From: Terriglobia bacterium
Lineage (GTDB): Bacteria > Acidobacteriota > Terriglobia > Versatilivoradales > Versatilivoraceae
Assembly (NCBI GenBank): GCA_951813285.1
Contig: OX638355.1
Location: 4,712,437 to 4,776,436, forward strand
Length of the DNA: 64,000 bases
Reading direction: 5' to 3'
The notes below the pieces were generated by a model. That model was not told the origin of the DNA and ran no database searches. It saw nothing but the letters and a program-made list of their open reading frames with translations. Positions 1 to 37,311 of this stretch are shown here, in pieces (position 1 is the first letter of the stretch; the number at the start of each line of letters is the position of its first letter). The translations under genes were made by a program, and so were the position numbers.

Positions 1-1900
1 ACAGGAGTTCACCGACGACGACGAAGAGATTTTGGTGTTGTTCGCGTCGCAGGCGGCAACGGCCATCGCCAACGCGCGTGCCTTCCGCGACGAGCATCGG
101 GCCCGGGCCGATCTGGAGGCGCTGATCGACACGTCGCCGGTGGGCGTCGCGGTTTTCGACGCCAAGAGCGGTCGAGTGGTGTCGTTCAATCAGGAGGCGA
201 AGCGGATTGTCGGGAGCCTGCGCATGCCGGACCTCCCGATTGAGCAGTTGCCGGACGTCATCACGTGTCGGCGCGCCGACGGAACGGAAGTGACCTTCAA
301 GGAGTTTCCCCTATCGCAGGCACTGAGTCGGGCCACAACGGTGAGAGCCGAGGAAATCGTCCTCGAGGTTCCCGACGGGCGAAGCGTCACGACGCTAATC
401 AACGCCACGCCGATCCGTGCCGAAGACGGCACGGTCGAGTCCATGGTGGTCACGCTCCAGGATTTGGCGCAGTTGCAGGAGATGGAGCAGCTGCGGGCGG
501 AGTTTCTGGGTATGGTGAGTCACGAACTGCAGGCCCCGCTGATGTCCATCAAGGGCTCCACATCCACGGTGCTGAGCGTGTTGCAGACCCCGAGCTTGGC
601 CGAGTTGCTCCAGTTCTTCCGCATCATCGACGAGCAGGCCGATTACATGCGTAGCCTGATCAGCGACCTGCTGGATGCCAGCCATATCGAGACGGGCACT
701 CTGGCCGTCTCCCCGGAGCCTGCGGAGGTGGTCGGCCTGGTGGACCAAGCCAGGAAAACATTCCTGACCGGAGGAGGTCGGCACGCCGTCGAGATCGACC
801 TGCCGTTCGATCTCCCCCGGGTGATGGCCGACCGGCAGCGCATCGTCCAGGTTATGAACAATCTCCTGTCGAACGCCGCCCGCTTCTCTCCCGAGTCCTC
901 TCCGATCCGAGTTGCTGCGGTCCATCAGGGGGTTGAGGTGGCGATCTCGGTATCGGACGAAGGCCAGGGAGTGCCGCCGGATCTGTTGCCGCGCCTGTTC
1001 CGCAAGCACGTGCGAATGGGCGGCGATCGCGGGATCGGAGGGTCCGGCCTGGGTCTGGCCATCTGCAAGGGTCTGGTGGAAGCTCACGGGGGACGCATCC
1101 GGGCCCAGAGCGCCGGGTCGGGTCTGGGCACGAGGTTCACCTTCACGATTCCGGTGGCCGAGGACGCCGGCGCCAGCTCGGCCGGGCTCGCTTCCCATCC
1201 GCCCCGAGCCGGAGGGGAGGGTGTGCCCGTCCTGGTGGTCGACGACGACCCGCAGACGCTCCGCTACGTTCGGGAGGCCCTCGCGGCGGCCGGTTACTCC
1301 CCGCTATTGAGCAGCGACCCGAGGGAAGTGCCCCGTCTGATTAAGACGAAGAAACCCCGGCTGCTTCTATTGGATCTGATGCTGCCCGGGATGGACGGGA
1401 TCGAATTGATGCAGCACGTCTCCGAAATTACCGATCTGCCGGTCATCTTCGTCTCTGCTTACGGCAGGGACGAGACGATTGCCCGGGCGCTGGAGCTGGG
1501 CGCCGCCGATTACGTGGTCAAGCCCTTCTCACCGACGGAACTGGTGGCGAGAGTCCGGGCGGCGCTACGCCGACACCACGAGCCGCCCGAGCCCTTCCGG
1601 TTGAGGAGTCTGACCATCCACTACGAGGACCGCCGGGTGAGCGTGGCGGGCCGCACGGTGCAGCTGACGGCCACCGAATACGAAGTGCTGCGGGTACTCT
1701 CGGTCAACGCGGGACGAATCATGACCTATGCGTCCCTGCTGCGCCAAGTGTGGAATCAGTCGGAAGCGGGTGACCGGCGGTCGCTACGCGGCATCGTCAA
1801 GCAGCTCCGGCGCAAGCTGGGCGACGATGCGTCCAAACCCACCTACATTTTTAACGAGCGCCAAGTCGGCTACCGCATGGCCAAACCGGACAAGGGCTGA
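1..1900 (+). CDS. Hybrid sensor histidine kinase/response regulator with C-terminal OmpR-type winged-helix DNA-binding domain; 5' end lies outside the window
   Basis: ORF 32..1900 is in frame from base 1. It aligns with the full-length paralog at 34840..37311 (GAF end 'LVLFAxQAATAIANAR', PAS, HisKA 'SHELQAPLMSIKGS', HATPase 'GSGLGLAICKGLVEAHGG', REC 'VLVVDDDP...LLLLDLMLPGMDG', Trans_reg_C 'LTATEYEVLRVLSVNAGRIMTY...YRM'). Confidence 0.85.
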   Translation, partial: QEFTDDDEEILVLFASQAATAIANARAFRDEHRARADLEALIDTSPVGVAVFDAKSGRVVSFNQEAKRIVGSLRMPDLPIEQLPDVITCRRADGTEVTFKEFPLSQALSRATTVRAEEIVLEVPDGRSVTTLINATPIRAEDGTVESMVVTLQDLAQLQEMEQLRAEFLGMVSHELQAPLMSIKGSTSTVLSVLQTPSLAELLQFFRIIDEQADYMRSLISDLLDASHIETGTLAVSPEPAEVVGLVDQARKTFLTGGGRHAVEIDLPFDLPRVMADRQRIVQVMNNLLSNAARFSPESSPIRVAAVHQGVEVAISVSDEGQGVPPDLLPRLFRKHVRMGGDRGIGGSGLGLAICKGLVEAHGGRIRAQSAGSGLGTRFTFTIPVAEDAGASSAGLASHPPRAGGEGVPVLVVDDDPQTLRYVREALAAAGYSPLLSSDPREVPRLIKTKKPRLLLLDLMLPGMDGIELMQHVSEITDLPVIFVSAYGRDETIARALELGAADYVVKPFSPTELVARVRAALRRHHEPPEPFRLRSLTIHYEDRRVSVAGRTVQLTATEYEVLRVLSVNAGRIMTYASLLRQVWNQSEAGDRRSLRGIVKQLRRKLGDDASKPTYIFNERQVGYRMAKPDKG

Positions 1901-1911
1901 GGACCTTCTTC

Positions 1912-2098
1912 TCTGCCGGATTCGGGTCAATTGCTTATGCTGGCCGAAGTATCGAATGGACCGGCGACACCTCTTACAGGCATCCCGGCGTTCCTGAAGG
2001 GCGGCGTTATAAAGCTCTTGGGCCATTTCAAGGAAACGATCCAGGAAGCGGGCTTGCTTTCGATTCGGCAGGCATCGGTAGTGGTAAGTGCGAATCAT
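1912..2098 (-). pseudogene. IS200/IS605-family TnpB (OrfB) N-terminal fragment of about 60 codons, truncated where it meets the stop codon of the upstream kinase gene
   Basis: Translation 'MIRTYHYRCLPNRKQARFLDRFLEMAQELYNAALQERRDA...IRYFGQHKQLTRIRQ' matches the TnpB N-terminal signature (YxYRLYPxxxQ...VYNxxLxxRxxxY...SYxxQxKxLTxLK). Homology stops where the ORF runs antisense into the kinase C-terminus. Confidence 0.4.
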
Positions 2099-2148
2099 GA
2101 CCGAAGGACCTCACTGGTAACAACTTAATCCGTGGGGTAGTTGGGCGC

Positions 2149-2436
2149 CTATTCTTTCTCGTTTTCAGGCTTGGTCGTTGATGGAAAGCGTCGCGGATTG
2201 TGCATCTTGAGAGCAACGAGAAGTTGCTTCTGGAGATTCGAGATCTGGTCCAGCCGCCTCACGATCTCCCCGTACTGCGCTTCAGGCCTGATCGTTGATG
2301 GAAAGGGTCGCGGATTGCGCATCTCGAAAGCAAAGAAGAGTTGCTTGTGGAGATTCGAGATCATGTCCAGCTGCCTCACGATCTCCTCGTACTCCGCGCT
2401 TTGAAGGATTACTACATTTTTCACCATTGGTCTCAT
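2149..2436 (-). CDS. Hypothetical small protein (95 aa) made of two tandem 39-aa repeats
   Basis: ORF with high GC3. The protein has the internal duplication 'EYEEIVRQLDMISNLHKQLFFAFEMRNPRPFPSTIRPE' / 'QYGEIVRRLDQISNLQKQLLVALKMHNPRRFPSTTKPE'. The plus-strand alternative is Cys/Trp/Arg-rich and less protein-like. Confidence 0.3.
   Translation of the reverse strand: MRPMVKNVVILQSAEYEEIVRQLDMISNLHKQLFFAFEMRNPRPFPSTIRPEAQYGEIVRRLDQISNLQKQLLVALKMHNPRRFPSTTKPENEKE
2150..2400. repeat. Direct tandem duplication, 2 copies of about 118 bp at roughly 85% identity
   Basis: Direct alignment of 2150-2268 against 2283-2400. Mismatches are mixed transitions and transversions, not adenine-specific. Confidence 0.8.
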
Positions 2437-2476
2437 TCAGGGTCCCCAAAGGGTGTGACTGCCAATGGGCAAGCAG

Positions 2477-2761
2477 TCACGGCTTCCTGGAGATAGCGCC
2501 TCCAGGCCCCTCGGGGGAGGCTCGCAATTGACGTTTTCGCTCCCGATAGATGGCATCGCCTTGCTCGGGCTCATCGAGAGGCACTATCTGGAGTCTAAGG
2601 CCGAGGCACTGAAGGAGCGCCTCAATCGAGTTCACCTGCGGAGTGGCCCCCCGGCGCATGTTTCGGACGGTATCGGCGGTACCCGTGGCCAGCATCGAGA
2701 GGCTCCGGTCAGGGACGCCGGAACGGTCGATGAGATCGAGCAGGCGTTGTCTCAAGCCCAT
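2477..2761 (-). CDS. XRE-family helix-turn-helix protein (about 94 aa from internal Met; the ORF could extend to 2989)
   Basis: 'RSLSMLATGTADTVRNMRRGATPQVNSIEALLQCLGLRLQIVPL' fits HTH_XRE (Cro/C1) helix2-turn-helix3 plus the following helix. The N-terminal extension to 2989 is low-complexity Arg/Ser. Confidence 0.4.
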   Translation of the reverse strand: MGLRQRLLDLIDRSGVPDRSLSMLATGTADTVRNMRRGATPQVNSIEALLQCLGLRLQIVPLDEPEQGDAIYRERKRQLRASPEGPGGAISRKP

Positions 2762-3621
2762 GTCGGAGTCAGAAGCAACCGTACCGTCTCCCCGCTCGCA
2801 TGCCGGCGTGCGGCCATACCGGTTCGATCGAGCCCGTGACACTGCCCGAGTCATTCCATGGCGGCTCGCCGCTGGCGTGCTTGCTCCGCTGTTGATGTCG
2901 GAAGACCGAGGCAGGGAGCCGCGTCTGCCTTGGCGGGATTGCTTTGTCAACAGTCGGAATTCCCGAGCCTTGCCCGGTTCCGACGGCACCCGATCGGAGT
3001 CCGGAGATGGCGGCCTTCTACTCCTCAGCCGAGGAGGGAACCGGTAATTGATAGATCGCAGGACAGAATAGACGACACAAGTGATTTCTGGGTGATGGTG
3101 GCCACGATTGTGGTGATAATATGGTGAGGGTCTGCAAGAAAACGTAATTTGTAACGCTCGGACAGCGCGGTGGGCTTTGAATTCGGCTCTTCCAGGGAGC
3201 CGGTGTTTTCAGTCTTGCAGGCCAAGCAAGTCAAAAACTCCCTACTAAGTACATGCCCTACATGCCGTGCTGAAAGGGACGGCAAAAGTGACCGTTGTAT
3301 CGAGGGCACAGCCAGGCGGCCGGGGGCCAAACCAGCCGCGCGAGAACGGGCTCCGCATGGCAGGCCGACTCTTCCCTGAGTCGTATTGATATGGTGAGAA
3401 GAGAAGCACTGGCGGCCACCCGAGAGGCATCAACGATGCTCACGGGGCCCGTATCGTGAATCGGCCCGCACTTAGGACTGTGTGGCCGAAGACAGCAGCC
3501 AGAGGGTTACATGGACTGTCGTCCCGCGCACATGAGTGTTGCCGGCTCTATGAAATATGTTAAGGAGATTAGCGTTTGCGGGGCTGCCTTCCGAGTTACG
3601 GTGAAAAACGCATGCATCCTT

Positions 3622-3806
3622 GAGCCTTTTGCAAAATTCGTCGTGCAGCGCTGGGGACGTTGTTGAATTACTGGAAAAACTTCGATCAGCCGTTCCTGAA
3701 TTGCTCTGATTCAATGACGTCTCCTAAGCGCTCTTTAGAGTAATTCCAGTAATTCAACAACGTCCCCTATTCACGTCCCCTACCTGCGGAATTTTGCAAA
3801 AGCCTC
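3622..3806. mobile_element. MITE-like element, family A (inner TIR GGGGACGTTGTTGAATTACTGGAA, outer TIR GAGCCTTTTGCAAAATTC)
   Basis: Perfect inverted termini at 3653-3676 and 3744-3767, plus outer inverted 'gagccttttgcaaaattc'/'ggaattttgcaaaagcctc'. Family recurs five more times in the window. Confidence 0.6.
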
Positions 3807-4125
3807 CCTTGAAAGCAGAATTTCCGGCAAGAGTTTTCAGTGACAGCAATCCCGTGACAGTGCCCCTGCCAAGGTCGCGCTCACAACAACCCGTGTCTCC
3901 CACCAGACGAAGCTGCTCCAGACTAACAAATCCCAACGCACTGTGCGGAGGAACCCGGTTGTAGTGGATCCGCCAGGCCTCAATGCTGTGCCGGGCATCG
4001 GCCAGATTCACAAACCACTGCACGTTCAGGCAGGCATCCCGAAACTTGCCGTTGAAGCTCTCCAACCGTGCATTCTGGATCGGCTTGCCTGGCTGGATGT
4101 AGCGCAACTCCACTCCGGTCCGCCG
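3754..4125 (-). pseudogene. IS3-family transposase (OrfB, DDE integrase core) C-terminal remnant
   Basis: 'SRRTGVELRYIQPGKPIQNARLESFNGKFRDACLNVQWF...ARHSIEAWRIHYNRVPPHSALGF' is the conserved C-terminus of IS3/IS2 OrfB. In-frame stops lie immediately upstream (about 4126-4140), so only about 120 codons remain. Local GC is lower than surrounding genes. Confidence 0.65.
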
Positions 4126-4913
4126 AGACTACAAAGCCTGACCTTATCCAAAACCACTGTGCCGGCGAATGGTGAGGCAAAAGCCCTTGCCAGTTCTTGC
4201 AAGACATCACCATATTCTCACCACATTCGCGGTCATAATCACTCAGAAATCACCTGTGTTGTCTATACTCTGCGCTGTGTCAAAAACAGACAACAGCAGA
4301 AGCAATTGATCACGCACCGTCCGGGTGGTCCACTGTCAGTGGATTGCCATACCCGGAATATTCCTGGTGACGGCAGTGTGAATTCATCGGGAACGTCAAG
4401 AAAAGCTTTTCAGGCCGGATGGCAAATCCGCCATGTTGATCAGCCTGTGAACCATGGCGAACGAGAACCGGACACCCACACGCGCTGCCTGCGCAGGCTG
4501 GACGGCATTCTCTCGAAGACCGCTGCCCTCGCGACGTGTGACTTTGAGGTGCCCGAGTCACAAGAATGATTATCGTAAACAGCTCGTGGCAACTGATTCA
4601 TTGTAGCGTCGGCACTCCCACACAATTCAATCTCTGTGTGGAAGCCCCTGGTCGATTGATTCAGGTGCGCACCGGATACAATATCCCGGGGACACGTCGG
4701 TTCATCTGGACAGGTCGTCGAACAACCATACAAGGACCTTATTGCGAGGACGTGTTTCGTCTGGGTGTCTCTCTGCTGTGGGCACGTGTGGAGGATGGCG
4801 GCGCCCCTGTAGAGATCTGTTTTCGGAGTGGTTTCTGAGCGTCGTTTCGGACTGGAAGCGCGTTCAGGCGGCTTGTTCACGAATCCTCAGAGGCAGCGGC
4901 CGGTTCCCTCTGG

Positions 4914-6404
4914 GTGTTTCGAGGCAGCGGCTCCGAAGGCGCGGTCGAGTCGGTGGTCGTAACCATGCAGGATCTGGCCCCTCAGGAGGAGACGGAACGG
5001 TTGCGCGCTGAATTTCTGAGCCTGGTAAACCACGAGTTGCGAGCCCCGCTGACCTCGATCAAGGGCTCGACCGCGACCGTGCTGGGCGCCGAGCCGGCCC
5101 CGGACACGGCCGAAATGCTGCAGTTTTTCCGAATCATCGACCAGCAAGCAGACCACATGCGAGGTCTGATCAACGACCTGCTCGATGCGGGACGCATTGA
5201 GACAGGGGCGCTTTCGGTCTCGACAGAACCGGTCGAGGTGGCGAGCCTGGTGGAGCAGGCGAGAAACACCTTTCTGAGTGGAGGCGGGCGGCACACCATC
5301 CTGATCGACCTGCCACCTGACTTGCCCAGGGTGCTGGCCGATCAGCGGCGAATCGTCCAGGTTCTCAACAACCTCTTCTCGAACGCGTCGAGGTACTCAC
5401 TCGAGTTGCTTCCGATCCGGGTCGCCGCTGCTCGGGACGACGTGCACGTGTCGATTTCAGTCTCCGACGAAGGCAGGGGGGTACCGCCGGAGCAGCTGCC
5501 GTACCTGTTCCGCAAGCAGACGCGGATGGGCAGCGAGGGGGGGATCCGTGGGAGTGGTTTAGGCCTGGCCATTTGCAAGAGCTTGGTGGAAGCCCACGGG
5601 GGACGGATTCGGGCCGAGAGCTGCGGGGTGGGCGTGGGCATGCAGACCACCTTCACGATACCGGTGGCCGAAGAAGGCGGCGTGGCCGGGAGCCTTCCGA
5701 GCTTGCCTCGGGAAGAGAGGACGGACACGCGTATTCTGGTCGTGGACGACGACCCGAAAACGCTCGGCTACGTTCGGGACGCCCTGGCATCGGAGGGTTA
5801 TGTCCCGTTGGTGACTGGAGACCCTCGCGAGGTGCCCAATCTGATCAGGACGGCGAAACCCCGGTTGGTTCTTCTCGACTCGATGCTGCCGGGAACCGAC
5901 AGAATCGAATTGATGAAACGCCTCCCCGAGATGGCCGGTTTGCCGGTGATCTTCATCTCGGGCTACGGAAGGGATGAGACGATCGCCAGGGCTCTGGATA
6001 CGGGGGCTACCGATTACATTGTCAAGCCCTTCTCGCCGACGGAGCTGGCGGCGAGAGTCCGGGCGGCCCTGCGCAAACAGTACGCCCCCCCCGAACCCTT
6101 CCGGCTAGGGGATCTGTCTATCGACTTCGAGCAACGCCGGGTGATGGTGGCCGGGCAGGCAGTCAAACTTACGCCCACCGAATACGATCTGCTGCGCGTG
6201 CTCTCGGTCAACGCCGGACGGGTCACGACATTCGATTCGTTGTTGCGCCAGGTATGGGGAGACCGTCAACCAGGAAACGTCGTGCTGTTGCGCACCTATG
6301 TGAAGAGGCTCCGTCGCAAGCTCGGCGATGGTGCAGTCAGCCCTGCCTATGTCTTCAACGAGCGCCAAGTCGGCTACCGCATGCCGAGGCCACACGATCT
6401 GTAA
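4914..6404 (+). CDS. N-terminally truncated paralog of the hybrid histidine kinase/OmpR-type response regulator (keeps HisKA-HATPase-REC-wHTH; lacks GAF and most of PAS); possibly a pseudogene
   Basis: GTG-start ORF. Homology to paralogs begins at 'GAVESVVVTMQDLAP' inside the PAS domain. Upstream sequence is IS3 remnant and non-coding low-GC DNA. Confidence 0.6.
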   Translation: MFRGSGSEGAVESVVVTMQDLAPQEETERLRAEFLSLVNHELRAPLTSIKGSTATVLGAEPAPDTAEMLQFFRIIDQQADHMRGLINDLLDAGRIETGALSVSTEPVEVASLVEQARNTFLSGGGRHTILIDLPPDLPRVLADQRRIVQVLNNLFSNASRYSLELLPIRVAAARDDVHVSISVSDEGRGVPPEQLPYLFRKQTRMGSEGGIRGSGLGLAICKSLVEAHGGRIRAESCGVGVGMQTTFTIPVAEEGGVAGSLPSLPREERTDTRILVVDDDPKTLGYVRDALASEGYVPLVTGDPREVPNLIRTAKPRLVLLDSMLPGTDRIELMKRLPEMAGLPVIFISGYGRDETIARALDTGATDYIVKPFSPTELAARVRAALRKQYAPPEPFRLGDLSIDFEQRRVMVAGQAVKLTPTEYDLLRVLSVNAGRVTTFDSLLRQVWGDRQPGNVVLLRTYVKRLRRKLGDGAVSPAYVFNERQVGYRMPRPHDL

Positions 6405-6544
6405 CCCTTGGACTCGCTTTACCTCGTTTCACTAAGCAAAGCCTCTCCACTCTGAAAAGGTTCAGACGGCCTGCGTGCGGTCGGACCTGTTCGAGCGGCA
6501 CCAAGGACGCTCAAGGCGTTCCGCATCGCGAATCGATCTGCACT

Positions 6545-6893
6545 CAGGAATTCGAAGGCGAGGGCAGCGGCCAGAGGGCGACATGGACGGTGCTGCCGCG
6601 CACATGAATGTTGACGTCGCGGTCAACGGGACACATCCAGTGCAGCTCCCGGCGAACGGTATCCGCGATCAAACCCTTGCAGGCTCCGTCGCTGTCGATC
6701 AGGATCTGGATAGCCTCATGCAGCGCCTCGGCCTCATAGCGGTCCCGCTGAGCCGTGTAGGAGTCAGCTTCTGCGTCGTCTGAGGGGAGAAAAAGGCGTC
6801 GACCAGTAGAGCCGCCAGTTCCTGGGGTTTAATCTCCACGGTTACCGAGACCAGCGGCACCACGTCGTGCAACCAAGCTCCGGGCTCCCCCAC
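6545..6893 (-). pseudogene. Small ORF split between two frames (frameshift near a T5/C4 homopolymer at about 6775-6790); function unknown
   Basis: GTG-start frame 'MGEPGAWLHDVVPLVSVTVEIKPQELAALLVDAFF' has high GC3. It continues after a one-base shift as '...DDAEADSYTAQRDRYEAEALHEAIQILIDSDGACKGLIADTVRRELHWMCPVDRDVNIHVRG', also high GC3, with no start codon of its own. Confidence 0.2.
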
Positions 6894-6953
6894 TAACGCT
6901 ACGTCGGCAGCAATGGTGATTGTCTGGATTCAATCACAACTAGCCACTGACCA

Positions 6954-8510
6954 CTATCCACTATTTGCTTCGCCACCGGCAGTTTCATCCTGCCTCAGGG
7001 TCAGGCCCTGCACGGACGACTTCGGCGGACGGGGGAAGCAGTAAGCCAGCAGCCCCGCCAAGGCCAACCCGACCAGGAACGGCAAGGGCACCACCCAGAC
7101 GAAGGAGAGGCTCTTTTCCATGCCGAACCACTCCTTCCCGAAACAGATGAAGAGGCTGGCCAGCGTCCCGGCCAGGAAACCCAGCAGGGCGGCCTGTTTC
7201 CCGGCGCGCCGAAACAGGATGCCGGCGAAGAACAGCACCCCCAGGGGCCCCACGAAAATGTGGTTCAGGCGTCCGGTGAGCTCGACCAGGTTCCAATCGG
7301 TGCGAGTGGCCATCAGGGCCGTACCGACCGCGGTGGCAATACCCACCAACCCCGCCAGCAGCGAAACCGCTCGATCCGCCCACAGGCTCCGCACCTGGGC
7401 CTTGAAGAGGCCGAACCTCTGGAAGAAGTCGGAGACCACCACTCCCGAGATGGAGTTGATGCCGGAACTCAAGCTGGACATGGCAGCCGCCAGCAAGGCG
7501 GCCAGCAGCAGCCCCGACACCCCGGCCGGAAGCTCTTCCACGATGAATATGGGCATCACCCGGTCGGCCCTGGCGGCGATCTCCTCCTGAAAGGCCTGAA
7601 TCGGAGCGGCCGACTGGCTGGCATAGAAGGCGAAAAGGGACAAGCCGCAGAACAGCAACGCCAGCATGATCACGAAGTTGAAGCCGGCAAACATCCACAC
7701 GCTCTTGCGTGCGGCCGACAGATCGGGGCAGCTCAGATAGCGCTGCACCGCCACCTGGTCTCCGCCCAGGGTGCAGATGTTCCAGAAGAAGTTGCCCATG
7801 ACGATTCCAACCACGGTGATGCGAACGGTCAGGTCCCAGCTGAAGGTCTGAATTTCAGTCCGCCCCGCTTCGGAAAAGGTCTGCCACCAGGTCGCCGGAC
7901 CGCTCCCCAGCGAGAATCCGATCAGCACCGGAATGGCCAGGGCGCCGCCCAGCAGAATCATCAACTGCAGGTTGTCGGTCCAGACCACCGTGCGCAGCCC
8001 GCCGGCGGTGGTATAGAAGGTGGTCACAAGGCCGGTGGCCACGATGGTGACGTAGAGATCCCAACCGGTGATCTGGGCCACGGCGAAGCTGCAGGTATAG
8101 ATGATCAGCCCCATCCAGATAATGGTCCGCAGCACGAAGAGAAAGGAGGCAAGGCTGCGAAAGCTCACGTCGAAGCGCTTCTCCAGGTACTCGTAGACGC
8201 TGGTGATGGGAAGTCGCCGCAGCACCGGAATCAGAACGCGGTTGGCCACCGGGACGAACAGCGGCATGGCGATGATGCCGGACAGGTAGGCGATGCCGTA
8301 GCGCATCATCTCGCCCGGCACGGAGAGGAAGGTGATGGTGGAGAGCAGGGTGGCCATCATGCTGCCGCCCAGCAGCGCCCAGTGCATGCTGCGGCCGCCC
8401 AGCAGATATTCCTCCCGCGAGGTCTGGCGCCGGGAGAAATAGATGCCGATCCCCGACAGCAATGCCATGTAGACGACCACCACCGCCAGGTCCAACGTCG
8501 TCAGTTGCAT
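6954..8510 (-). CDS. Sodium:solute symporter family (SSF/SLC5-like) transporter
   Basis: 518 aa, about 13 TM helices. Motifs 'YLLGGRSM', 'TVVWTDNLQ' are typical of SSS-family permeases. Confidence 0.9.
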   Translation of the reverse strand: MQLTTLDLAVVVVYMALLSGIGIYFSRRQTSREEYLLGGRSMHWALLGGSMMATLLSTITFLSVPGEMMRYGIAYLSGIIAMPLFVPVANRVLIPVLRRLPITSVYEYLEKRFDVSFRSLASFLFVLRTIIWMGLIIYTCSFAVAQITGWDLYVTIVATGLVTTFYTTAGGLRTVVWTDNLQLMILLGGALAIPVLIGFSLGSGPATWWQTFSEAGRTEIQTFSWDLTVRITVVGIVMGNFFWNICTLGGDQVAVQRYLSCPDLSAARKSVWMFAGFNFVIMLALLFCGLSLFAFYASQSAAPIQAFQEEIAARADRVMPIFIVEELPAGVSGLLLAALLAAAMSSLSSGINSISGVVVSDFFQRFGLFKAQVRSLWADRAVSLLAGLVGIATAVGTALMATRTDWNLVELTGRLNHIFVGPLGVLFFAGILFRRAGKQAALLGFLAGTLASLFICFGKEWFGMEKSLSFVWVVPLPFLVGLALAGLLAYCFPRPPKSSVQGLTLRQDETAGGEANSG

Positions 8511-8555
8511 CCTTCGCCCCTTCGGTCGCGGCTCGGCCGCGCATCGCTCAAACTG

Positions 8556-10379: not shown

Positions 10380-10408
10380 CCGACCTGTCAACCCCCACGG
10401 AAATCCCC

Positions 10409-11725: not shown

Positions 11726-12845
11726 GGAAATCGATGGGCCAGCCGGTTTTCCCCTCCAGGGCCAGGTCGGCCAGGACTTCCCCCACCACGGGCGCGAACT
11801 TGAACCCGTGACCGGAGAAGCCGGCCCCGAACAGCACCTGCTCGTAATGGGGATGGCGGTCGATGATGAAGTGGCCGTCGGGCGTCATGGTGTAGAGGCA
11901 GGTCTTGGCGGCCGGCATCTGGTCCAGCGGAGGACGGTCGGGGTCCAGCAGGCCCGGGACAAACCGGGCGATATCCCGTACCAGGGGAGCCAGTTCGGCT
12001 TCCGTCACCGGGGGAACCTGAACGGGGAATGCCGGCAGGGGGTCGCCCTTCTCGTGATAGGCGATCTTGACGCCGGCGCCTCCGATTTCGGGAAAACCGT
12101 AGAAGGCCCCGGGAGCAAAGACGAAGATGGGGAAAGAGCCGGGTTGAAACCATTGCGGCCGGTGGGGTCTGAACCAGGTCAGCACCTGGCGTCTCACCAG
12201 CAACGGCAGCTTCAAGGCCCTCAGGATGGCGCCGCTCCAGGCCCCGGCGGCGACCACCAGCCGCTTGGCCCGAATCTGTCGGTCGCGGGTGCTCACCCGA
12301 ACCTCCCGTCCCTCGACCGACCACCCCAGGACTTCCTGGTCCAGCCTCAGCTCTGCCCCCAGGCGGCGAGCTCCCTGTAAAGCACAGCCCACGGCAGCAG
12401 ACACGTCGATCAGGCCGGCCCGGTCGTCCAGCAGCCCGGTAAAGTTCCCCGGGGGATTGAAGGCGGGAAAGCGCCGCCGAATCTCCTCCCCGGACAGGGA
12501 CTGAACCGGCAATCCGTGAACGGCAGCACTTTGCTGAACCCCGTGGATCAGAGGGCTGCCGGCCTCTCCCAGGCTCAGCACCCCCGTCCAGGTCAGCAAC
12601 TCGGGGCGGCCTTCCGCGGCCAGGCGCTCCCAGAGCTCCAGGGCCCGCTTCATCAGCGGCACGTAATCGGGATGTTCCGTGTAGATGGTGCGAAAGGCCC
12701 GGGTCTCGCCGCCGTGGCTGCCCTGATCATGGGGTGGGGAGAACCGGTCGAAGCCGATCACCGAAGCGCCCCGGCCGGCCAACTCCAGGGCGGTGAAGCT
12801 TCCCATGGCCCCCAGGCCGACAATGGCCACGTCGTAACCTGGCAT
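11703..12845 (-). CDS. FAD-dependent oxidoreductase, monomeric sarcosine oxidase / N-methyltryptophan oxidase (MSOX/SolA/pipecolate oxidase) family
   Basis: 'YDVAIVGLGAMGSFTALELAGRG' dinucleotide-binding motif and overall MSOX-like length and architecture. Confidence 0.85.
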   Translation of the reverse strand: MPGYDVAIVGLGAMGSFTALELAGRGASVIGFDRFSPPHDQGSHGGETRAFRTIYTEHPDYVPLMKRALELWERLAAEGRPELLTWTGVLSLGEAGSPLIHGVQQSAAVHGLPVQSLSGEEIRRRFPAFNPPGNFTGLLDDRAGLIDVSAAVGCALQGARRLGAELRLDQEVLGWSVEGREVRVSTRDRQIRAKRLVVAAGAWSGAILRALKLPLLVRRQVLTWFRPHRPQWFQPGSFPIFVFAPGAFYGFPEIGGAGVKIAYHEKGDPLPAFPVQVPPVTEAELAPLVRDIARFVPGLLDPDRPPLDQMPAAKTCLYTMTPDGHFIIDRHPHYEQVLFGAGFSGHGFKFAPVVGEVLADLALEGKTGWPIDFLRLEGRF

Positions 12846-13005
12846 GCTTGCGATCTTGTCGGCTCCCGGATTTCTCTGTGCTGGATGGCTTGAGTCGAAA
12901 CAACGTTGACGGACGAGGCGGGAAATGTGGATTTCGGATTGTAGATTCTTGATTTGAGGCTAAACCAGTCGTCCTTACCCCCAAATCCACAATCGGAAAT
13001 CAACA

Positions 13006-13025
13006 GAGCCTTTTGCAAAAGGCTC
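13006..13025. terminator. Perfect palindrome GAGCCTTTTGCAAAAGGCTC (8-bp stem, TGCA loop) downstream of the minus-strand OCD-family gene
   Basis: Self-complementary 20-mer 74 nt downstream of the OCD-family stop. The same 'gagccttttgcaaaa' half-site is also the outer TIR of MITE family A, so it may be a repeat module rather than a dedicated terminator. Confidence 0.25.
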
Positions 13026-13098
13026 AACAATCAACGATTCCCTTTGTGGATATCTCTTTTCCCTTTTCGCCCGCATTTTGCGTCGAGGCACGGCCTCG

Positions 13099-14080
13099 CT
13101 AGCTGAAAGCCACCCTCCGGCCCAATCCCTTGGCCAGCGCCTGCTCGTAGATGCTGGCGGCCACGGTGGTGTCCTGAACCCCCAGGCCGATCCCGTCGAA
13201 GAGGGTGATCTCGTCCTCCCGCCGGCGGCCCTTCACCTGGCCCAGAATCACCTGCCCCAGGCTGCCGGCGTAGCAGTCCTTGCTCAGGATGCCCTGCTCC
13301 ACCGCCTGGCTGGCCTCGCCCCGCTGCAGGCAGTGCTCCACCTTGTCGGCAAAGAGCCGGCAGCGCGGCAGCAGATCCGGCTCACACTCGATCTTGGTGT
13401 GCAGGTCGGCCCCCATGCAGGAGAGGTGGGTCCCTTCCCTCACCCACTCGCTCCGCACGATGGGCGCGGTGCTGTTGGTGGCGGTGCAGATCACGTCGGC
13501 TTCCCGACAGGCTCTTTCGGCATCGGTCACCTCGATCGGGACCGGCGTTTCCTCGGCCAAGTCCGCCGCCAGCCGCTCGGCCTGGTCTTTCCGGATATCG
13601 AAGAGCAGGATGCTCCGGAAGGGCCGCACCCGGCTCAAGGCCCGCACGCACTGGCGCCCCAGTTGGCCTGAGCCGATGACCGCCAGCACGGCCGCCTCCC
13701 GCGGGGCCAGGTGCTTGGCCGCCACCGCCGCGGCCGCGGCTGTCCGGTACATGGTCGCCAGCACCGATTCCACGATCAGCAGCAGCTCGCCGGTGTCCGG
13801 ATCGTAGAGGTTCATGGTGCTGAAGATGGTGGGCAGCCCGCGCTCGACGTTGCCCTTGCGCTCCTGTCCCATCTTCATGGAGAACTTGTGGGTGGCCTTG
13901 GTGTAGCCGGTCAGGCAGGCGGCAATGCCTCCGGGCAGATCCACGATGCACTTGGGGGGAAGCAGGTCCTCTCCCTTTTCGAACTGGGCCAGGCACGTCT
14001 CGATCGCTGGCACGATCTCCTGCAGGTCGATCTGCGCCGCCACTTCCCCGCGAGTCAGAACGATTGTTTCTCTAGCCATG
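13099..14080 (-). CDS. Ornithine cyclodeaminase / mu-crystallin family protein
   Basis: From the internal ATG 'MARETIVLTRGEV...'. The upstream part of the listed ORF overlaps the next gene and is low complexity. NAD-binding 'LAVIGSGQLGRQ' and overall OCD-family similarity. Confidence 0.85.
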
Positions 14081-15225
14081 GAATCATCCTTTCGAAAGCG
14101 GACTCGATCCGGTCCATCGAGGTGGCGTAGCTCAGCCGCAGGCCGTTGCGGCAGGATTGCCCGAAGGTGTCCCCCGGGATGGCGCAGACCCGGATCTCCT
14201 GCAGCATCCTGAGCGTGAACCGGGCCCCGTCTTCCCCGGCGGGCAGCGAAGGCATGATGTAGAAGGCACCCTGCGGACGGTAGCCCTGCAGGTGGCGGCA
14301 CTGCTCCAGCAGCTCCACGATGCGGTTCCGGCGCTTCCGGTATTCGCCTACCATTCGATCGACACAGCCCTGGTCACCCTGCAAAGCCGCCACGGAGGCC
14401 CACTGTCCCGGCGTGTTCCCCACCGTAGTGGTATAGGTGTGGTAGCGCCTCAAGGTCTGGAGGTTCTTGCGGCTGGAGATCAGCCATCCCACTCGCATGC
14501 CCGGCATGCTGTAGGTCTTGGAAACACTGCTGGCCACGATCAGGTGATCCAGATCCACCTCGCAGTTGAGGACGCTGGAAGGCTCCATCTCGTCCAGGAT
14601 CAACCGGTCGTAGACCTCGTCGCTAATGACGGTAATCCCCCGCTTGGCGGCGGCCTGACAGATGGCCTCCAGGGTCGAGGGAGGATAGACGGTGCCGGTG
14701 GGGTTGCCGGGGGAGTTGAGGATGACTGCGCAGGTCCGGGGCCCCATGGCGTCGATCACTTCCTGGGGATCCACCTGGTAGCCCTGCTCGGCAGTGGTGA
14801 CGATGCGCCGGACGCTGCCTCCGGCCAGACCCACCAGCGGCTGGAAGAGCACGAAGCTGGGCTCGATGACGATCACCTCGCGCCCCGGCGCCGCCAAGCT
14901 GGTCACCGCCAGGAAGATGGCCTCCCCGGCTCCGGTGGTCTCCAGCAGGTTCTCCTCCACCAGTTTCCGGCCGCTGGCTCGCCCGTAAATCCCGGCCAGA
15001 GCAGAAAGCAGCTCCGGCAGGCCGGCATCCAGGGTGTAGTGGGTCTTGTCCTGGCGCAGTGCCTCCACGTGTGCCTCGACGATGTGCGGGGGCGTGGGAA
15101 AGTCGGGCTGCCCGATGGAGAGGTGGATGACGTCCTCCATGGTGGCCGCCAGGTTGAACATCCGGCGAATTCCCGAAACCGGCAGCGCCGACAGCGCGGG
15201 ATTCCATTGAAGGGATGGAGTCATG
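14055..15225 (-). CDS. Class I/II PLP-dependent aminotransferase (aspartate aminotransferase-like)
   Basis: From 'MTPSLQWNPALSALPVSGIRRMFNLAA'. PLP-lysine region 'SVSKTYSMPGMRVGW'. The longer upstream extension is Arg-rich and spurious. Confidence 0.85.
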
Positions 15226-15589
15226 GTCTGAAGGTAATGTCCTGGCTTTGGGTGGGCTGACGGCCCCCTTCGTATCAGCCTTCGGCTGGTCTTCCTCCCT
15301 GTTGGGCTGGCGTTTGCCCCCCTCCGCATCAGCCTTCGCCTGTCGGCTCGGCTTCTGCGACTCCCCTCAAGGGGAGAGTGACGGAGCCGCTTGAGGGAGG
15401 TTCGAGTAACAGCCCGCCCCAGAATGCCCCAAGCCGTCCCCCCAAGTCGAGCGTTTTTGGATTGGGGCGCGTTCGAGGGGGCTTTTCCTGGGGGTGTGGT
15501 TGACGTGGTTCGAGAGAAGCTGTGCGTTGGGGGAAGGGCGCACCTGGTTCGCCGCCTTCGCGGCTGACGGAGTGCAGAATTCACACCCC

Positions 15590-28581: not shown

Positions 28582-28611
28582 CCGCGGCTACGCGGCGGAA
28601 AGGATGCCACC

Positions 28612-29679: not shown

Positions 29680-29770
29680 CCGTTGGGGAAAAAGATACCC
29701 ACGAAGAGACACGAAGAATGACCCCCGGGAAAGAGACCCGGGAGCGGCCCACGGAATCGGAAAGAAAAAA

Positions 29771-30952: not shown

Positions 30953-31003
30953 GGGTTGGTGGAAAGTGGGGAGTCTGCGTTTCTCTATGTGAGGTCGGTG
31001 TTG

Positions 31004-31237
31004 GCCCCCCTCCTGATCGACTGCGGGCTGCGCCCTTGTCTCTCCGACTCCCCCTCAAGAGGGGAGTGATACTTGAGGCCTGCACCAGGCCTCTTGCCCG
31101 ATTCCTGGGCAGGATGTAAACCATGTTCCCGGTCTACCGCATAGACTCCGTTCCCTCTTCATCACACGGATATCACTCCCCCCTTGAGGGGGAGTCGGAG
31201 AAGCCGAGCCGCAGGCGAAGGCTGATGCGGTGGGGGG
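31004..31237. repeat. Hairpin-TIR repeat, family R copy 1 (TIR TCTCCGACTCCCCCTCAAGGGGGGAGTGATA at both ends, inverted)
   Basis: Left 31040-31070 and right 31172-31202 are reverse complements. Each contains the CTCCCCC-tcaa-GGGGGAG stem-loop. The first about 130 bp match 52233-52365 and 58010-58244 (reverse). Confidence 0.55.
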
Positions 31238-31376
31238 TTCGCACAAGGCGAGCCACAGGCGAGATCTTGTGCGCCGCTGCGGGGTTCGCACGAGGTGAGT
31301 TGCCAAGCGAAAACCTGTGCATCGATGTTAATTCTTCTCATAAATCACAGGGTGGAAAGCCCCGCCGGCTTGCCCA

Positions 31377-32489: not shown

Positions 32490-32715
32490 GGATGGGTCCT
32501 CTCGAAAGGGGTGGGAGGGAATCTTCCGCTCCGGGCAAACCGGCGGAACCGGAAGGCCCCCGAGCGGGCCGCGGCGCGGTTTGCCAACGGGACAGCCATG
32601 GTGTATGGTTTTCCGTCGAGTGTCAATCGAAGTTTAGGGGCTTCGAGGGAGACAGAGCCGGACAGGTCCGAGGAACGAAACCTCCCATTTCATCGCACTG
32701 AGGAGACAGCCGCTC

Positions 32716-33468: not shown

Positions 33469-33483
33469 AATTCCCCGAACCGC

Positions 33484-34611: not shown

Positions 34612-34839
34612 GAAATTTCTCCCCCGCGGGCGTCTCTCATCGATCGGACCGACTCATGAGTCCGTCCCCTGACCGCAGTCGGCAAAACACTCGGAGGGGG
34701 CGGTTGCTATCGGCGCCTGCACGATATAGGTCCTTTGCTGCCGGGGGACAGGAAATTCACCGGGGTTCGAGCATGGACGCAAATGGTTCGTCCGAGCCCA
34801 CCCGATCTCCACACACGGCGCTTATGACGACCAGGCTCG

Positions 34840-37311
34840 CTACACTTCGCCCGGCCTCGCCATACGGTAGCCGACCCGGCGTACGTTAAAGATGTAGGCG
34901 GAATTCTGCGCGTCATCGCCGAGCTTGCGACGGAGCCTCTTCACATAGGTGCGAACCAGGCGAGGATCGCCTTGCTCCCGCTTGCCCCACACTTGGCGCA
35001 GCAACGACTCGAAGGTGACGACCCGTCCCGCATTGACTGAAAGTACTCTGAGCAAATCGAATTCGGTGGCTGTCAACTCCAGCGGATTCCCGGCCACCTT
35101 CACCCGTCGTCCCGCGTAGTCGATCGCGACCTCCCCCAACCTGAAGGGTTCAGGCGGCTCGGCTACTCGGCGCAGGACCGCCTGGACTCTCGCCACCAGC
35201 TCCGTCCGCGAGAAGGGCTTGACGATGTAGTCGGAGGCGCCCTTCTGCAGGGCCTTGGCGACGGTCCCGTCCCTTCCATAACCGGAGATGAAAATGACCG
35301 GCAGACCGGCTATCTCCGGAACTCGCTCCATTAACTCAATGCCATCGGTTCCGGGCAGCATCAGGTCCAGCAGGACCAATTCGGGCTTCTTGGCATTGAT
35401 CAGATGGGGCACCTCCTGAGGGTCGCCCGTCACAAAGGGTATGTAGCCCGCGGCCGTAAGAGAGTCTCGAACGAAACGCAATGTCAGCGGGTCGTCGTCC
35501 ACCACCAGGATGCGTGTTCGCTCCAGTCTTTCCCGAGGCGAACGTGTGGGATTCAGGGCGAAGCCGTTAGTGGCACGGATGGCGGTCTCCTCGGCTATCG
35601 GAATCGTGAACGTGAATCGTGCGCCCAAACCTGTTCCACCGCTTTCCGCCCGGATGCGGCCCCCATGGGCTTCCACCAGTCCCTTGCAGATGGACAGCCC
35701 CAAGCCCGACCCCCTGATCCCGTCTTCGCCGCCTCCGACACGGGCGTACTTGCGGAACAGATTCGGCAACTGATCCGGAGGTATGCCCCGACCTTCATCC
35801 GAGATCGAGACGGCCACGTACAATCCATCCACTACGGCCGAGACCCGGATGGGCGCAGAGTCGGAAGACTGCCTCGACGCATTGGAGAAGAGGTTGTTGA
35901 GAACCTGGACGATGCGACGATGGTCGGCCAGCACCCGGGGCAGGTCTGGCGGCAGGTCGATCAGGAGGGCGTGCCGGCCACCGCCACTCAGAAAGGTATT
36001 CCTGGCTTGCTCCACCAGGTCGGCCACCTCTGCCGGCTCAGGCGTGACCGACAGAGTGCCCGCCTCGATACGCCCGGCATCCAGCAGGTCGCTGATCAGG
36101 CCGCGCATGTGATCGGCCTGTTGTTCGATGATGCGGAAAAACTGAATAATCTCGGCAAGGTCCGGGGCCGGAGAGGCGTCCATCACGGTGGCGGCCGAGC
36201 CCTTGATGGAAGTCAGCGGCGCTCGCAGTTCGTGACTCACCAAGCTCAGAAACTCGGCCCGCGACCGCTCCAGCTCTTCCAGCGGCGCCATGTCCTGAAT
36301 GACAACCACCACCGACTCGACCGCGCCGTCCCCGGAACGGATGGGCGTGGCGTTGACCAACGTGGTGACGCTCCCGCCGCCCGGAACTTCAAACACGGTC
36401 TCACTGGCACGCAGCATCGTACCTCTGCTCAGCACATGCGCCGCCGGATACTCTTCCAATGAGAATTCACTACCGTCGGCGCACCGGCACTTCATGACCT
36501 CCAGCAACTGTTCCGCGGACTGACCTGCGGGGCTCAGATCCTCGACAATTCGCCTCGCCTCCCGATTGATCAACACCGGCTGTCCGGTCCGCGCATTGAA
36601 AACCGCAACGCCTATAGGCGAGGTGTCAACCAGGGCCTCCAGATCGGCCCGGGCCCGATGCTCCTTACGGTAAGTGCGCGCGTTGGCGATCGCCGTGGCC
36701 GCCTGGGCGGCGAACAACACCAGAACATCCTCGTCTTCGCTGGAAAACTCCCGTCCGCCGGCCTTGCCGGCCAGATAGAAGATGCCGACACTCACCCCCC
36801 GATGACACAACGGCGTTCCCAGAACGGTCTTCGGCAGGATCGGGTGCCGGGAAAGACCAAGCGACCGGACGTAGCCATGCATGTCAGTTGATCTCAAGGC
36901 ACCCTCACGGTCCCGGAGGTGTTCGAACAACCGGAGCCCGTCGGCCCATTCCGTCATCTGGTGGCGCTCTTCCTGAGTGAAGCCGGAAAAAACGACCTCC
37001 TCCAACTGTCCCGAGTCCCCGATGGTCGCGATAACACCATAACGGGTGCCGATCAGCGCGCGGGCGCCTTCTACAATCTCGGACAAGACCGTGTCGAACT
37101 CAAGGCTTGCGCTGATGCGCAGGCTGGCCGCGCTTAGCTTGGAGATGCGATCCCGCAGGACCGCGACCTCCTGCATCAGTTCGTCGCGACTCTTCAATTC
37201 CCTTCTCCTTTGGATACCGGAGCCAAACCCGGCTCCTGGCCGCCGCTCCCTGTCTCGAAGCAGACACCGGAGTCGAGGCCCGCCAAGCTCCGCTGGCGCC
37301 AAGACCAGCAT
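34840..37311 (-). CDS. Full-length cytoplasmic hybrid sensor kinase / OmpR-type regulator (coiled-coil-GAF-PAS-HisKA-HATPase-REC-wHTH)
   Basis: 823-aa ORF with no TM segments. All domains readable. The real start may be the internal Met at about 37176 ('MQEVAVLRDRISKL') because the first 45 residues are Arg/Gly-rich. Confidence 0.85.
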   Translation of the reverse strand: MLVLAPAELGGPRLRCLLRDRERRPGAGFGSGIQRRRELKSRDELMQEVAVLRDRISKLSAASLRISASLEFDTVLSEIVEGARALIGTRYGVIATIGDSGQLEEVVFSGFTQEERHQMTEWADGLRLFEHLRDREGALRSTDMHGYVRSLGLSRHPILPKTVLGTPLCHRGVSVGIFYLAGKAGGREFSSEDEDVLVLFAAQAATAIANARTYRKEHRARADLEALVDTSPIGVAVFNARTGQPVLINREARRIVEDLSPAGQSAEQLLEVMKCRCADGSEFSLEEYPAAHVLSRGTMLRASETVFEVPGGGSVTTLVNATPIRSGDGAVESVVVVIQDMAPLEELERSRAEFLSLVSHELRAPLTSIKGSAATVMDASPAPDLAEIIQFFRIIEQQADHMRGLISDLLDAGRIEAGTLSVTPEPAEVADLVEQARNTFLSGGGRHALLIDLPPDLPRVLADHRRIVQVLNNLFSNASRQSSDSAPIRVSAVVDGLYVAVSISDEGRGIPPDQLPNLFRKYARVGGGEDGIRGSGLGLSICKGLVEAHGGRIRAESGGTGLGARFTFTIPIAEETAIRATNGFALNPTRSPRERLERTRILVVDDDPLTLRFVRDSLTAAGYIPFVTGDPQEVPHLINAKKPELVLLDLMLPGTDGIELMERVPEIAGLPVIFISGYGRDGTVAKALQKGASDYIVKPFSRTELVARVQAVLRRVAEPPEPFRLGEVAIDYAGRRVKVAGNPLELTATEFDLLRVLSVNAGRVVTFESLLRQVWGKREQGDPRLVRTYVKRLRRKLGDDAQNSAYIFNVRRVGYRMARPGEV

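Follow-up and report, generated by a model that had tools for sequence, protein, structure and literature searches.

A soluble histidine kinase fused to an OmpR-type regulator, with a candidate operator of its own, in bacteria of many phyla

To our knowledge, research on two-component systems contained in one polypeptide has dealt almost exclusively with those of Bacteroides, which are anchored in the membrane and have an AraC-type output. In these hybrid two-component systems (HTCS), for instance those of B. thetaiotaomicron (PMC11253607), a sensor, a histidine kinase (HK) core, a receiver (REC) and a DNA-binding output are combined in a single chain, the output is tethered to a dimeric kinase, and the systems have expanded within genomes. 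The insulation of paralogues is expected from tethering and not from interface specificity, as tethering lets pathway fidelity rest on local concentration, while the DNA-binding domains must stay inactive before the stimulus (PMC11253607). Here, we describe three genes for an HK fused to a complete OmpR-type response regulator (RR), which lie in a 64,000-nucleotide stretch of contig OX638355.1 of a Terriglobia bacterium (Acidobacteriota, assembly GCA_951813285.1; the whole stretch is called the window below), and the protein family to which they belong.

Whereas HTCS are transmembrane, carry a large periplasmic glycan sensor and an AraC-type output, and are encoded beside polysaccharide utilisation loci (PULs), the proteins described here are soluble, receive their input through GAF and PAS domains, end in an OmpR-type winged helix-turn-helix (wHTH), have no conserved neighbour in 80 loci, and cross phyla. 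They fail three of the four defining features of HTCS (membrane or periplasmic sensor, AraC output, PUL context), they have no specific sequence relationship to HTCS, and no HTCS model stands among the NCBIfam matches listed. Their C-terminal part is that of the OmpR/PhoB family (MtrA, PhoB, KdpE, RpaB): residues 560–782 align over the full length (MtrA 1–218 of 219, 181 bits; PDB 2gwr, 1.1e-41), the phospho-acceptor and switch residues are the same, and the candidate DNA site is a direct repeat with an 11-bp period. In that family the regulator stands alone, whereas here it is fused in frame to a kinase in every copy and scores under every equivalog cut-off. The kinase part, ~34% identical to HK853, has the DHp and CA domains of class I kinases (HK853, PhoR/PnpS, the WalK core), with the H, N, G1, F and G2 boxes and a PAS domain directly before the DHp helix; unlike those kinases, it has no membrane anchor, an N-terminal GAF domain, and its cognate regulator fused to it. 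Phosphorelay hybrid kinases (TorS, RcsC, ShkA) also place an HK before a receiver in one chain, but their receivers lack an output domain and feed an Hpt protein, whereas here the receiver carries a DNA-binding domain and there is no Hpt. Judged by their sequences, the proteins are bona fide combinations of a class I HK and an OmpR-type RR, neither stand-alone regulators nor phosphorelay hybrid kinases.

The evidence set out below makes it likely that the full-length gene encodes a soluble, self-contained, autoregulated two-component pathway in one polypeptide, and that operator and gene form a portable unit that has been transferred repeatedly and has many sponge symbionts among its hosts.

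Architecture and abundance of the fused proteins

Open reading frame (ORF) listing and translation gave three uninterrupted ORFs at 2–1900 (+, copy 1), 4914–6404 (+, copy 2) and 34840–37311 (−, copy 3), and a tblastn search of the 64-kb window with copy 3 matched exactly these three places and no others. In all copies, Pfam identifies HisKA (9e-13 to 4e-14), HATPase_c (7e-23 to 7e-27), Response_reg (8e-22 to 8e-26) and Trans_reg_C, the last over model positions 1–77 of 77 (1e-19 to 9e-24), and these core domains score far over the Pfam gathering thresholds. In copy 3 (3.6e-14, 2.8e-24, 1.5e-24 and 8.7e-24, respectively), they are preceded by GAF_2 (1.4e-9) and a weak PAS match (5e-4). Copy 1 has the end of a GAF domain, PAS (2.5e-10), HisKA, HATPase_c, Response_reg and Trans_reg_C (1.4e-19), while copy 2 has the four core domains only. 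Neither a stop codon nor a frameshift lies at the kinase–regulator junction of any copy, Pfam matches neither an Hpt nor an HTH_18/AraC domain in the proteins, and hydropathy alone predicts no membrane helix (top 19-residue Kyte–Doolittle mean 1.37). Domain search and reading frames thus bear out what a first-pass annotation of this DNA had proposed, namely three cytoplasmic paralogues without a membrane anchor, each an HK fused to a complete OmpR-type regulator and one of them lacking GAF and PAS.

The H, N, G1, F and G2 boxes of the kinase and the DD/D/S/K residues of the receiver are kept in all three copies, the amino-acid identities of which are 66% (copies 1 and 2), 65% (copies 1 and 3) and 72% (copies 2 and 3). 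The H-box reads SHELR, SHELQ or NHELR, and H322 is invariant among 74 family sequences. The receiver motifs VVDDD, LLD, F(I/V)S(G/A)YG and VKPF occur in all copies; D567–D569, D611, Y657 and K660 are invariant in the family, and the switch residue S638 is kept. A C-terminal motif that had been described as common to the three copies is indeed present in each, but it differs slightly between them (YIFNERQVGYRM in copy 1, YVFNERQVGYRM in copy 2, YIFNVRRVGYRM in copy 3).

The ORF of copy 3 exists as first annotated, but 37311 marks only its longest possible form: the likely start is TTG 37197, preceded by AAAGGAGAAGGGAA (AGGAG), which gives a protein of 785 amino acids (aa) with the sequence of database protein P0188 (100% identity), encoded on the same 5,108,082-bp contig. 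Synteny around this gene is conserved in two related loci (L001 and L002), the order being 3-keto-disaccharide hydrolase, small helical protein, HK-RR, BNR_2, PhyH, BNR_2, M20 peptidase and Kelch, and a syntenic orthologue lies on OZ242296.1, labelled Candidatus Versatilivorator sp. (Acidobacteriota). As part of the same joint explanation, copy 3 is likely to be an intact, autoregulated member of the family in a conserved locus. Copy 1 is probably intact as well; its closest database relatives among the matches listed are 91% identical proteins of 780–782 aa with a GAF domain, and over window positions 1–1900 its DNA is 92.5% identical to that of its orthologue P0339 in L085, a related genome of 4.85 Mb. 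With P0067, a further paralogue, the 5.1-Mb contig holds at least four family copies.

In an AlphaFold2 model, the chain runs from an N-terminal helix through GAF, a long connecting helix, PAS, DHp, CA and a disordered linker (residues 537–559, pLDDT <50) to REC and the wHTH. The HK core superposes on HK853 (TM ~0.8), and the C-terminal 220 aa align over their full length with models and structures of MtrA, PhoB and KdpE; a fold search with the full model returned generic HK cores and phytochromes only and gave no clue to a ligand. Conservation is similar from end to end (REC 70%, DHp 69%, CA 66%, PAS 61%, wHTH 59%, GAF 55%), the HK–REC linker alone being variable (22%).

The family was surveyed by (i) protein searches with three queries, of which the best 120 matches were considered, (ii) a scan of one genome per GTDB species, which gave at least 590 matches, with locus analyses on the best 80, and (iii) a HMMER search of all 1.84 billion representatives at 50% identity. 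The best 120 proteins are almost only of ~780–790 aa with HisKA, HATPase_c, Response_reg and Trans_reg_C, nearly all with GAF or PAS in addition, at 67–98% identity. Nearly all of the best 80 loci cover the full query at 54–84% identity to copy 3 (three start after residue 18, one of them cut by a contig end), and about 75 of the 150 best representatives align end to end at 38–60% identity, some with a longer N-terminal sensor region. The architecture, at first held to be uncommon, is near-uniform in the first two of these sets. The few relatives with a name go under ‘response regulator [Acidobacteriota bacterium]’ and nothing more specific; of 159 matching NCBIfam models, the 25 best all stay under their own curated cut-offs (best MtrA, 180.7 bits vs 300), no solved structure spans beyond the HK core or the RR part, and our literature search found no paper describing the family or its architecture. 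Because match counts are large while no cut-off is reached and neither structure nor paper was found, the architecture is abundant, yet unnamed and unstudied.

Multi-copy genomes are the rule in the family, since several of its proteins share single multi-Mb contigs (at least three on each of a 5.25-, a 5.50- and a 5.34-Mb contig, and several on a 5.26-Mb contig). Erosion of copies is common: the gene is interrupted in four of the 80 loci, by an insert of ~1.1 kb in L009, L027 and L072 and of ~0.4 kb in L062, with a matched stretch of 2.7–3.5 kb and stop codons as expected for insertion sequences inside a gene, and protein P0148, discussed below, is half of a frameshifted copy. In a Bryobacterales metagenome-assembled genome (MAG; OZ241997.1, L045), three full-length genes stand in a row on one strand within 14 kb (16–2325, 6001–8331, 12047–14332), with operator-like sites ahead of the second and the third.

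A phased direct repeat upstream of family genes

As the output domain is conserved to the same degree as the remainder of the protein, we searched for a DNA site upstream of the genes. An AT-rich direct repeat with the 11-bp-phased core GTGA-N7-GTGA was found 70–250 nt upstream of family genes across phyla. Of 73 non-redundant 300-nt upstream regions, 12 have this core in sense orientation and none in antisense orientation, while other spacers between 0 and 15 give zero to one region each; GTG-N8-GTG occurs in 33 of the 73 regions vs 3–18 for other spacers. This control by spacer and orientation is unaffected by base composition.

A position weight matrix (PWM) trained on other genomes only, with this genome excluded, has its best match in the 64-kb window at 37320–37341 (score 20.5) and further matches at 37329–37350 and 37352–37373, all within the candidate operator of copy 3 (Table 1). 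In an otherwise diverged alignment with L001, L002 and L005, the boxes ATGyCAATAGTGTGAA and TTAGTGTTATTATCATGAA are invariant and 33 nt, or three helical turns, apart. Over the 80 loci, 51 matches scoring >15 fall within the 320-nt windows upstream of the family genes of 37 loci (~26 kb) vs 34 in the remaining ~2 Mb, several of which precede extra or degenerate family copies (L023, L004, L010, L045). Two other matches in the window (52674–52695 and 31162–31176) lie downstream of convergent genes or within palindromic repeats and were not taken as targets.

OmpR/PhoB regulators classically bind direct repeats with an 11-bp period. Since the phased repeat upstream of the genes is of this type, autoregulation is the simplest reading, and the pattern suggests that the repeat is an autoregulatory operator bound by the wHTH.

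In the mechanism that we propose, the GAF–PAS module would sense an intracellular or membrane-permeant cue in the cytoplasm and gate the autophosphorylation of H322 in a class I (HK853/PhoR-like) kinase that dimerizes via DHp. Within the same dimer, His322 would hand its phosphoryl group to Asp611 of the receiver, which a flexible linker of ~25 residues tethers to the kinase, and the phosphorylated receiver would let two OmpR-type winged helices occupy adjacent half-sites of GTGA-N7-GTGA upstream of their own gene, leading to autoregulation. Operator and gene would then constitute a portable unit multiplied within genomes. If the logic of tethering carries over from HTCS, it would let at least four paralogues coexist in one cell.

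Distribution across phyla and alternative explanations

The best 80 loci carry MAG labels of Acidobacteriota (several orders), Gemmatimonadota, Latescibacterota, Binatia, Dehalococcoidia/SAR202 (Chloroflexota), Nitrospirales (Nitrospirota), Spirochaetia (Spirochaetota), Alphaproteobacteria and Gammaproteobacteria; many of them lie on multi-Mb chromosome-level contigs, and at least nine phyla or classes contain full-length relatives at 54–86% identity. Among 78 aligned full-length sequences (pairwise identity minimum 49%, median 61%), the nearest neighbour of 30 belongs to another phylum or class, examples of cross-phylum pairs being Vicinamibacterales–Gammaproteobacteria (86%), Binatia–Rhodobacterales (80%) and Longimicrobiales–Gammaproteobacteria (78%). 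In most loci the gene is richer in GC (0.61–0.74) than the DNA around it; the difference reaches 16 points, as in a Nitrospirales MAG with 0.724 in the gene vs 0.56 in the flanks. No neighbour gene is conserved in the 80 loci, where the largest cluster of flanking ORFs (8 of 80) is the family itself; no non-coding flanks or terminal repeats are conserved between phyla, beyond those of close relatives, and cross-phylum DNA homology ends at the gene. Considering (i) the cross-phylum neighbours, (ii) the GC offset, (iii) the lack of a conserved neighbour and (iv) the homology ending at the gene, a stand-alone gene was probably transferred repeatedly between phyla. Among 72,556 plasmids, we found no full-length homologue, the best matches being separate kdpD/kdpE pairs at ~37%.

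The first-pass annotation had read the three copies as a lineage-specific expansion. An Acidobacteria-specific family, with local duplication followed by decay and with likeness elsewhere due to vertical descent, would fit the several paralogues per Acidobacteriota genome (at least three on each of the 5.25-, 5.50- and 5.34-Mb contigs), the Acidobacteriota origin of the closest relatives of copies 1–3 among the matches listed, and the clustered copies and fragments in L045 (three in a row), L026 and L020. We nevertheless consider it improbable, given the full-length relatives at 54–86% identity in at least nine phyla or classes, the 30 of 78 nearest neighbours outside their own phylum or class, which point to cross-nesting, the gene GC up to 16 points over the flanks without synteny common to the loci, and the derivation of copy 2 from a distant paralogue and not from its neighbour, described below. 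That the gene is the cargo of a defined mobile element (plasmid, integrative and conjugative element, transposon or phage), which would account for both its spread and its multiple copies, is unlikely too. Transposase fragments do adjoin copy 2, P0148 (DDE_3, DDE_Tnp_1) and the copy 1 orthologue (DUF772), an integrase lies 2.5 kb from the copy 3 orthologue in L002, and four of the 80 loci have an interrupted gene; yet no mobility gene recurs in the flanks of these loci, cross-phylum DNA homology stops at gene plus operator, the plasmids hold no full-length homologue, and the copy 3 locus is syntenic among related genomes.

Two further alternatives concern the protein. A receiver serving as a phosphorelay intermediate, as in TorS and RcsC, would feed an Hpt protein and not the attached DNA-binding domain; the NCBIfam hybrid-kinase models TorS, LvrA and HrmK match partly across HK and REC, but far under their cut-offs, whereas REC and wHTH align end to end with OmpR/PhoB-family regulators (MtrA, PDB 2gwr) and keep their switch residues. 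With no Hpt domain in the protein, no conserved neighbour and a matching direct repeat upstream, we regard this role as very improbable. The probability that the fusion is an assembly or annotation artefact joining separate HK and RR genes is negligible: HK and RR genes are indeed neighbours in the nearest classical systems and nothing found favours an artefact, whereas all three ORFs of the window are uninterrupted, as is the corresponding ORF in well over 100 independent assemblies, some of them with chromosome-level contigs, and the reading frames already refute it.

Seven of the 80 loci belong to two MAG series with a sponge origin confirmed in papers, namely SB06xx from Ircinia ramosa and APA from Aplysina aerophoba. 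We treat the link to sponge symbionts as a lead, not a result. One may speculate that operator and gene are a sensing cassette spread in the sponge holobiont by detecting a habitat-specific cue, for example a redox state or a metabolite of the host or the community, with one receptor and one DNA code common to symbionts of at least nine phyla; we rate this as possible but doubtful. If true, it would amount to a community-wide signalling channel acquired by horizontal transfer, and the equal conservation of the sensor (GAF 55%, PAS 61%) and the DNA-reading domain (59%) would reflect one ligand and one operator. Repeat proteins of eukaryotic type count as a typical trait of sponge symbionts; in keeping with the suspected habitat, very large leucine-rich-repeat proteins of 1896 and 1604 aa are encoded near family genes at L085 1–5427 and L056 5573–10387, respectively.

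Several points weigh against an autoregulated, repeatedly transferred and often sponge-associated pathway, which we favour all the same. Part of the similarity across phyla could be due to strong purifying selection, and MAG taxonomy labels can err, the ‘Aldehydirespirator’ locus L061 being syntenic with Dehalococcoidia loci. Refinement of the PWM used sequences like those that it then scored, so that only the spacer/orientation control and the held-out window scan are independent. Promoter scans gave no usable sigma-70-like promoter beside the boxes, and the site is therefore equally compatible with activation and repression; no target beyond the gene’s own promoter was identified. The AlphaFold2 model is of moderate quality (pLDDT 72, pTM 0.33), and our literature search, as stated above, found no paper on the family. 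Sponge origin is confirmed for two MAG series only, since the RHO, COS, CO3638x, bin87 and Plut (coral) series are sponge or coral sets by our presumption, not by confirmation, and ~50 loci with UUID isolate names carry no habitat information.

The copy in L061 (labelled Candidatus Aldehydirespirator, Actinomycetota) is 95% protein-identical to Dehalococcoidia copies, with 450 nt of upstream DNA in common (78–89%); either the taxon label is wrong or a larger segment was transferred very recently.

Copy 2, its surroundings and the meaning of the family

Copies 1 and 2 lie on the same strand, 3 kb apart, and were at first taken for a tandem pair. In DNA, copy 2 is 72% identical to copy 1, 74% to copy 3, and 95.0% to the gene of P0067 (L003 3541–5040), a 780-aa full-length paralogue on the same 5.1-Mb contig. 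The 95% match spans exactly 4934–6433 (1.5 kb) between unrelated flanks, and family homology in copy 2 begins at 4934/4935, seven codons past GTG 4914. Because of this identity of 95% vs 72% to its neighbour, copy 2 is evidently a partial copy of the P0067 paralogue and not a tandem duplicate of copy 1. Its product is identical to database protein P0121 of the 5,108,082-bp contig.

A relaxed tblastn search with residues 1–345 against 1900–5000 found no GAF or PAS remnants upstream of copy 2, only the junction at 4935–4988 being matched; the gene is without its native upstream region and operator and has no evident Shine–Dalgarno sequence before GTG 4914. Its dN/dS against the P0067 gene is 0.60, compared with 0.17–0.32 for copy 3 orthologues and 0.19–0.27 between paralogues. 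At 198 columns that are at least 95% conserved, copy 2 deviates eight times, P0067 three times and copy 1 ten times (family mean 2.5, SD 2.1, maximum 10); the deviations of copy 2 include S39N beside the phospho-His and L323S and G330R beside the phospho-Asp. A related fragment in L085 is more degraded, with a called ORF of only 216 aa. Copy 2 is thus probably a decaying relic that has lost its sensor and operator and lies among transposase fragments and orphan operator modules. The ongoing decay seen by the first-pass annotation holds as far as these losses and the dN/dS of 0.60 go; against it stand the intact ORF of 496 codons, with all catalytic residues, and the polarised changes, 23 on the copy 2 lineage vs 13 on that of P0067, a difference that is not significant (p = 0.13). 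Relaxed selection was not adopted as a finding, as dN/dS is raised but neither this lineage test nor the audit of conserved sites (8 vs the family maximum of 10) is decisive.

Copy 2 could instead be a functional sensor-less isoform, for example a constitutively active kinase–regulator or a heterodimer partner that titrates full-length paralogues. Its long ORF with intact H, N, G1, F, G2 and DD/D/S/K motifs, a number of deviations inside the family range and matched by copy 1, the box-like site upstream at 4367–4388, and the 494–528-aa proteins called in other genomes are all compatible with this idea. Yet at least one ‘short’ homologue, the ‘523-aa’ P0148, is the 3′ half of a frameshifted full-length gene (L004 4186–6563) with its N-terminal part in another frame and two operator boxes at 4050–4102, the locus being either a pseudogene or a long-read indel error; short forms in other genomes were for this reason not used as evidence of recurrent isoforms. 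With the native operator lost, no evident ribosome-binding site before GTG 4914, a dN/dS of 0.60 vs 0.17–0.32 for orthologue and paralogue pairs, three substitutions adjoining phospho-sites, and the L085 relative decayed further, we see a functional isoform as a rather unlikely alternative to a relic.

The interval between copies 1 and 2 has a GC content of 0.56 vs 0.63 in the window and contains an inverted repeat of 76–93 nt, the arms of which hold four of the six exact GTGA-N7-GTGA sites of the window (1.6 expected by chance), two per arm and 32 nt apart. In L085, the arm sequence stands upstream of the copy 1 orthologue, and again upstream of the decayed REC-wHTH fragment, which is 86% identical to the 3′ part of copy 2; a third, inverted copy lies downstream of the copy 1 orthologue and adjoins a DUF772 transposase fragment. 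Window 2921–3206 is 79.5% identical to L085 8668–8950, 51–333 nt upstream of the start of the copy 1 orthologue, and window 4137–4860 is 75% identical to L085 12269–12960, downstream of it, with the boxes conserved. All five modules, two in the window and three in L085, align with both boxes conserved. Since the arm sequence precedes the copy 1 orthologue, the inverted repeat is read from these alignments as two orphaned promoter/operator modules of copy 1-type genes. The arms were also considered as the ends of an insertion sequence, and this was rejected on account of their alignment upstream of the copy 1 orthologue and of the rve_3 fragment, which does not fit an IS3 layout. With operator modules, decayed copies and insertion-sequence remnants in both the window and L085, the surroundings of copy 1 are a graveyard of such pieces, subject to rearrangement. 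The 95-aa ORF at 2149–2436 (−) in this interval has faint NikA-like and MtrG-like matches only.

Table 1 Coordinates of the fused genes, operator modules and other features in the window.
Feature	Position	Strand	Remarks
Copy 1	2–1900	+	3′ 633 codons: GAF end, PAS, HisKA, HATPase_c, REC, Trans_reg_C; open at the 5′ window edge
IS605-type OrfB/TnpB fragment, N-terminal HTH only	1970–2098	−	Pfam HTH_OrfB_IS605 1.3e-7, residues 1–43 of ORF 1784–2098 (−)
Tandem 117-nt duplication	2164–2397		87% identity; inside the 95-aa minus-strand ORF 2149–2436
Inverted-repeat arm 1, orphan copy 1-type promoter/operator module	3048–3140	+	GTGA-N7-GTGA boxes 3081–3095, 3113–3127
Transposase/integrase fragment, rve_3 C-terminal part only	3754–4113	−	Pfam rve_3 5.9e-24; between the two operator modules
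Inverted-repeat arm 2, orphan operator module	4194–4283	−	Boxes 4239–4253, 4207–4221
Further box-like site	4367–4388	+	PWM scan
Copy 2	4914–6404	+	496 aa, 5′-truncated: HisKA, HATPase_c, REC, Trans_reg_C; without GAF/PAS
Copy 3	34840–37197	−	Complete, 785 aa: N-terminal helix, GAF, PAS, HisKA (H322), HATPase_c, ~25-aa linker, REC (D611), OmpR-type wHTH
Candidate operator of copy 3	37320–37373	−	Half-sites ATGCCAATAGT-GTGAATAATTC ... GTGTTATTATC-ATGAACTCATG; 123–176 nt upstream of the TTG start
22-nt repeat sites	3653–3674/3746–3767, 21135–21156/21229–21250, 22788–22809/22882–22903, 38392–38413/38582–38603, 37495–37516, 52520–52541

Other repeats are found in the window. The 22-nt GGGGACGTTGTTGAATTACTGG occurs 10 times (0 expected), mostly as inverted pairs with starts 93–94 nt apart (190 nt in one pair), and looks like a family of small MITE or REP-type elements. 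The intergenic DNA upstream of copy 3 contains one of these sites. Also upstream of copy 3, two stretches of ~210 nt (37391–37708 and 38330–38593) match each other at 72% identity, and each has the 22-nt repeat at its boundary; their small ORFs are probably not genes. Between the M20 peptidase and BNR_2 genes, ~384 bp (30967–31349) that are absent from the orthologous L001 consist of palindromic G+C-rich units (CTCCCCCTCAAGAGGGGAG...), which recur at 52218–52365, 58110–58259, 15317–15381 and 57670–57728; L002 has them at the same place. Upstream of the copy 3 locus, 38728–44143 and L001 1–4753 encode a PSCyt1/PSCyt2/PSD1 protein (1078 aa), a DUF1501 partner and the 3-keto-disaccharide hydrolase; the PSCyt1/PSCyt2/PSD1 and DUF1501 gene pair is better known from Planctomycetes-type genomes.

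The fusion alone would not surprise a specialist. What stands out is the end-to-end conservation across at least nine phyla or classes, an operator that appears to travel with the gene, and the possible sponge link. A soluble version with an OmpR-type output and a recognisable candidate operator is a compact sensor-to-promoter module, for which one protein and one 55-bp site suffice for assays, and it could serve as a portable biosensor chassis, as the gene, to judge from its distribution, is evidently functional in hosts ranging from Chloroflexota to Proteobacteria. Genome annotation would be better served by a dedicated model of the family than by the name ‘response regulator’. A receptor conserved at 55–86% identity in unrelated members of sponge microbiomes would, finally, give a handle on what these uncultured bacteria sense.

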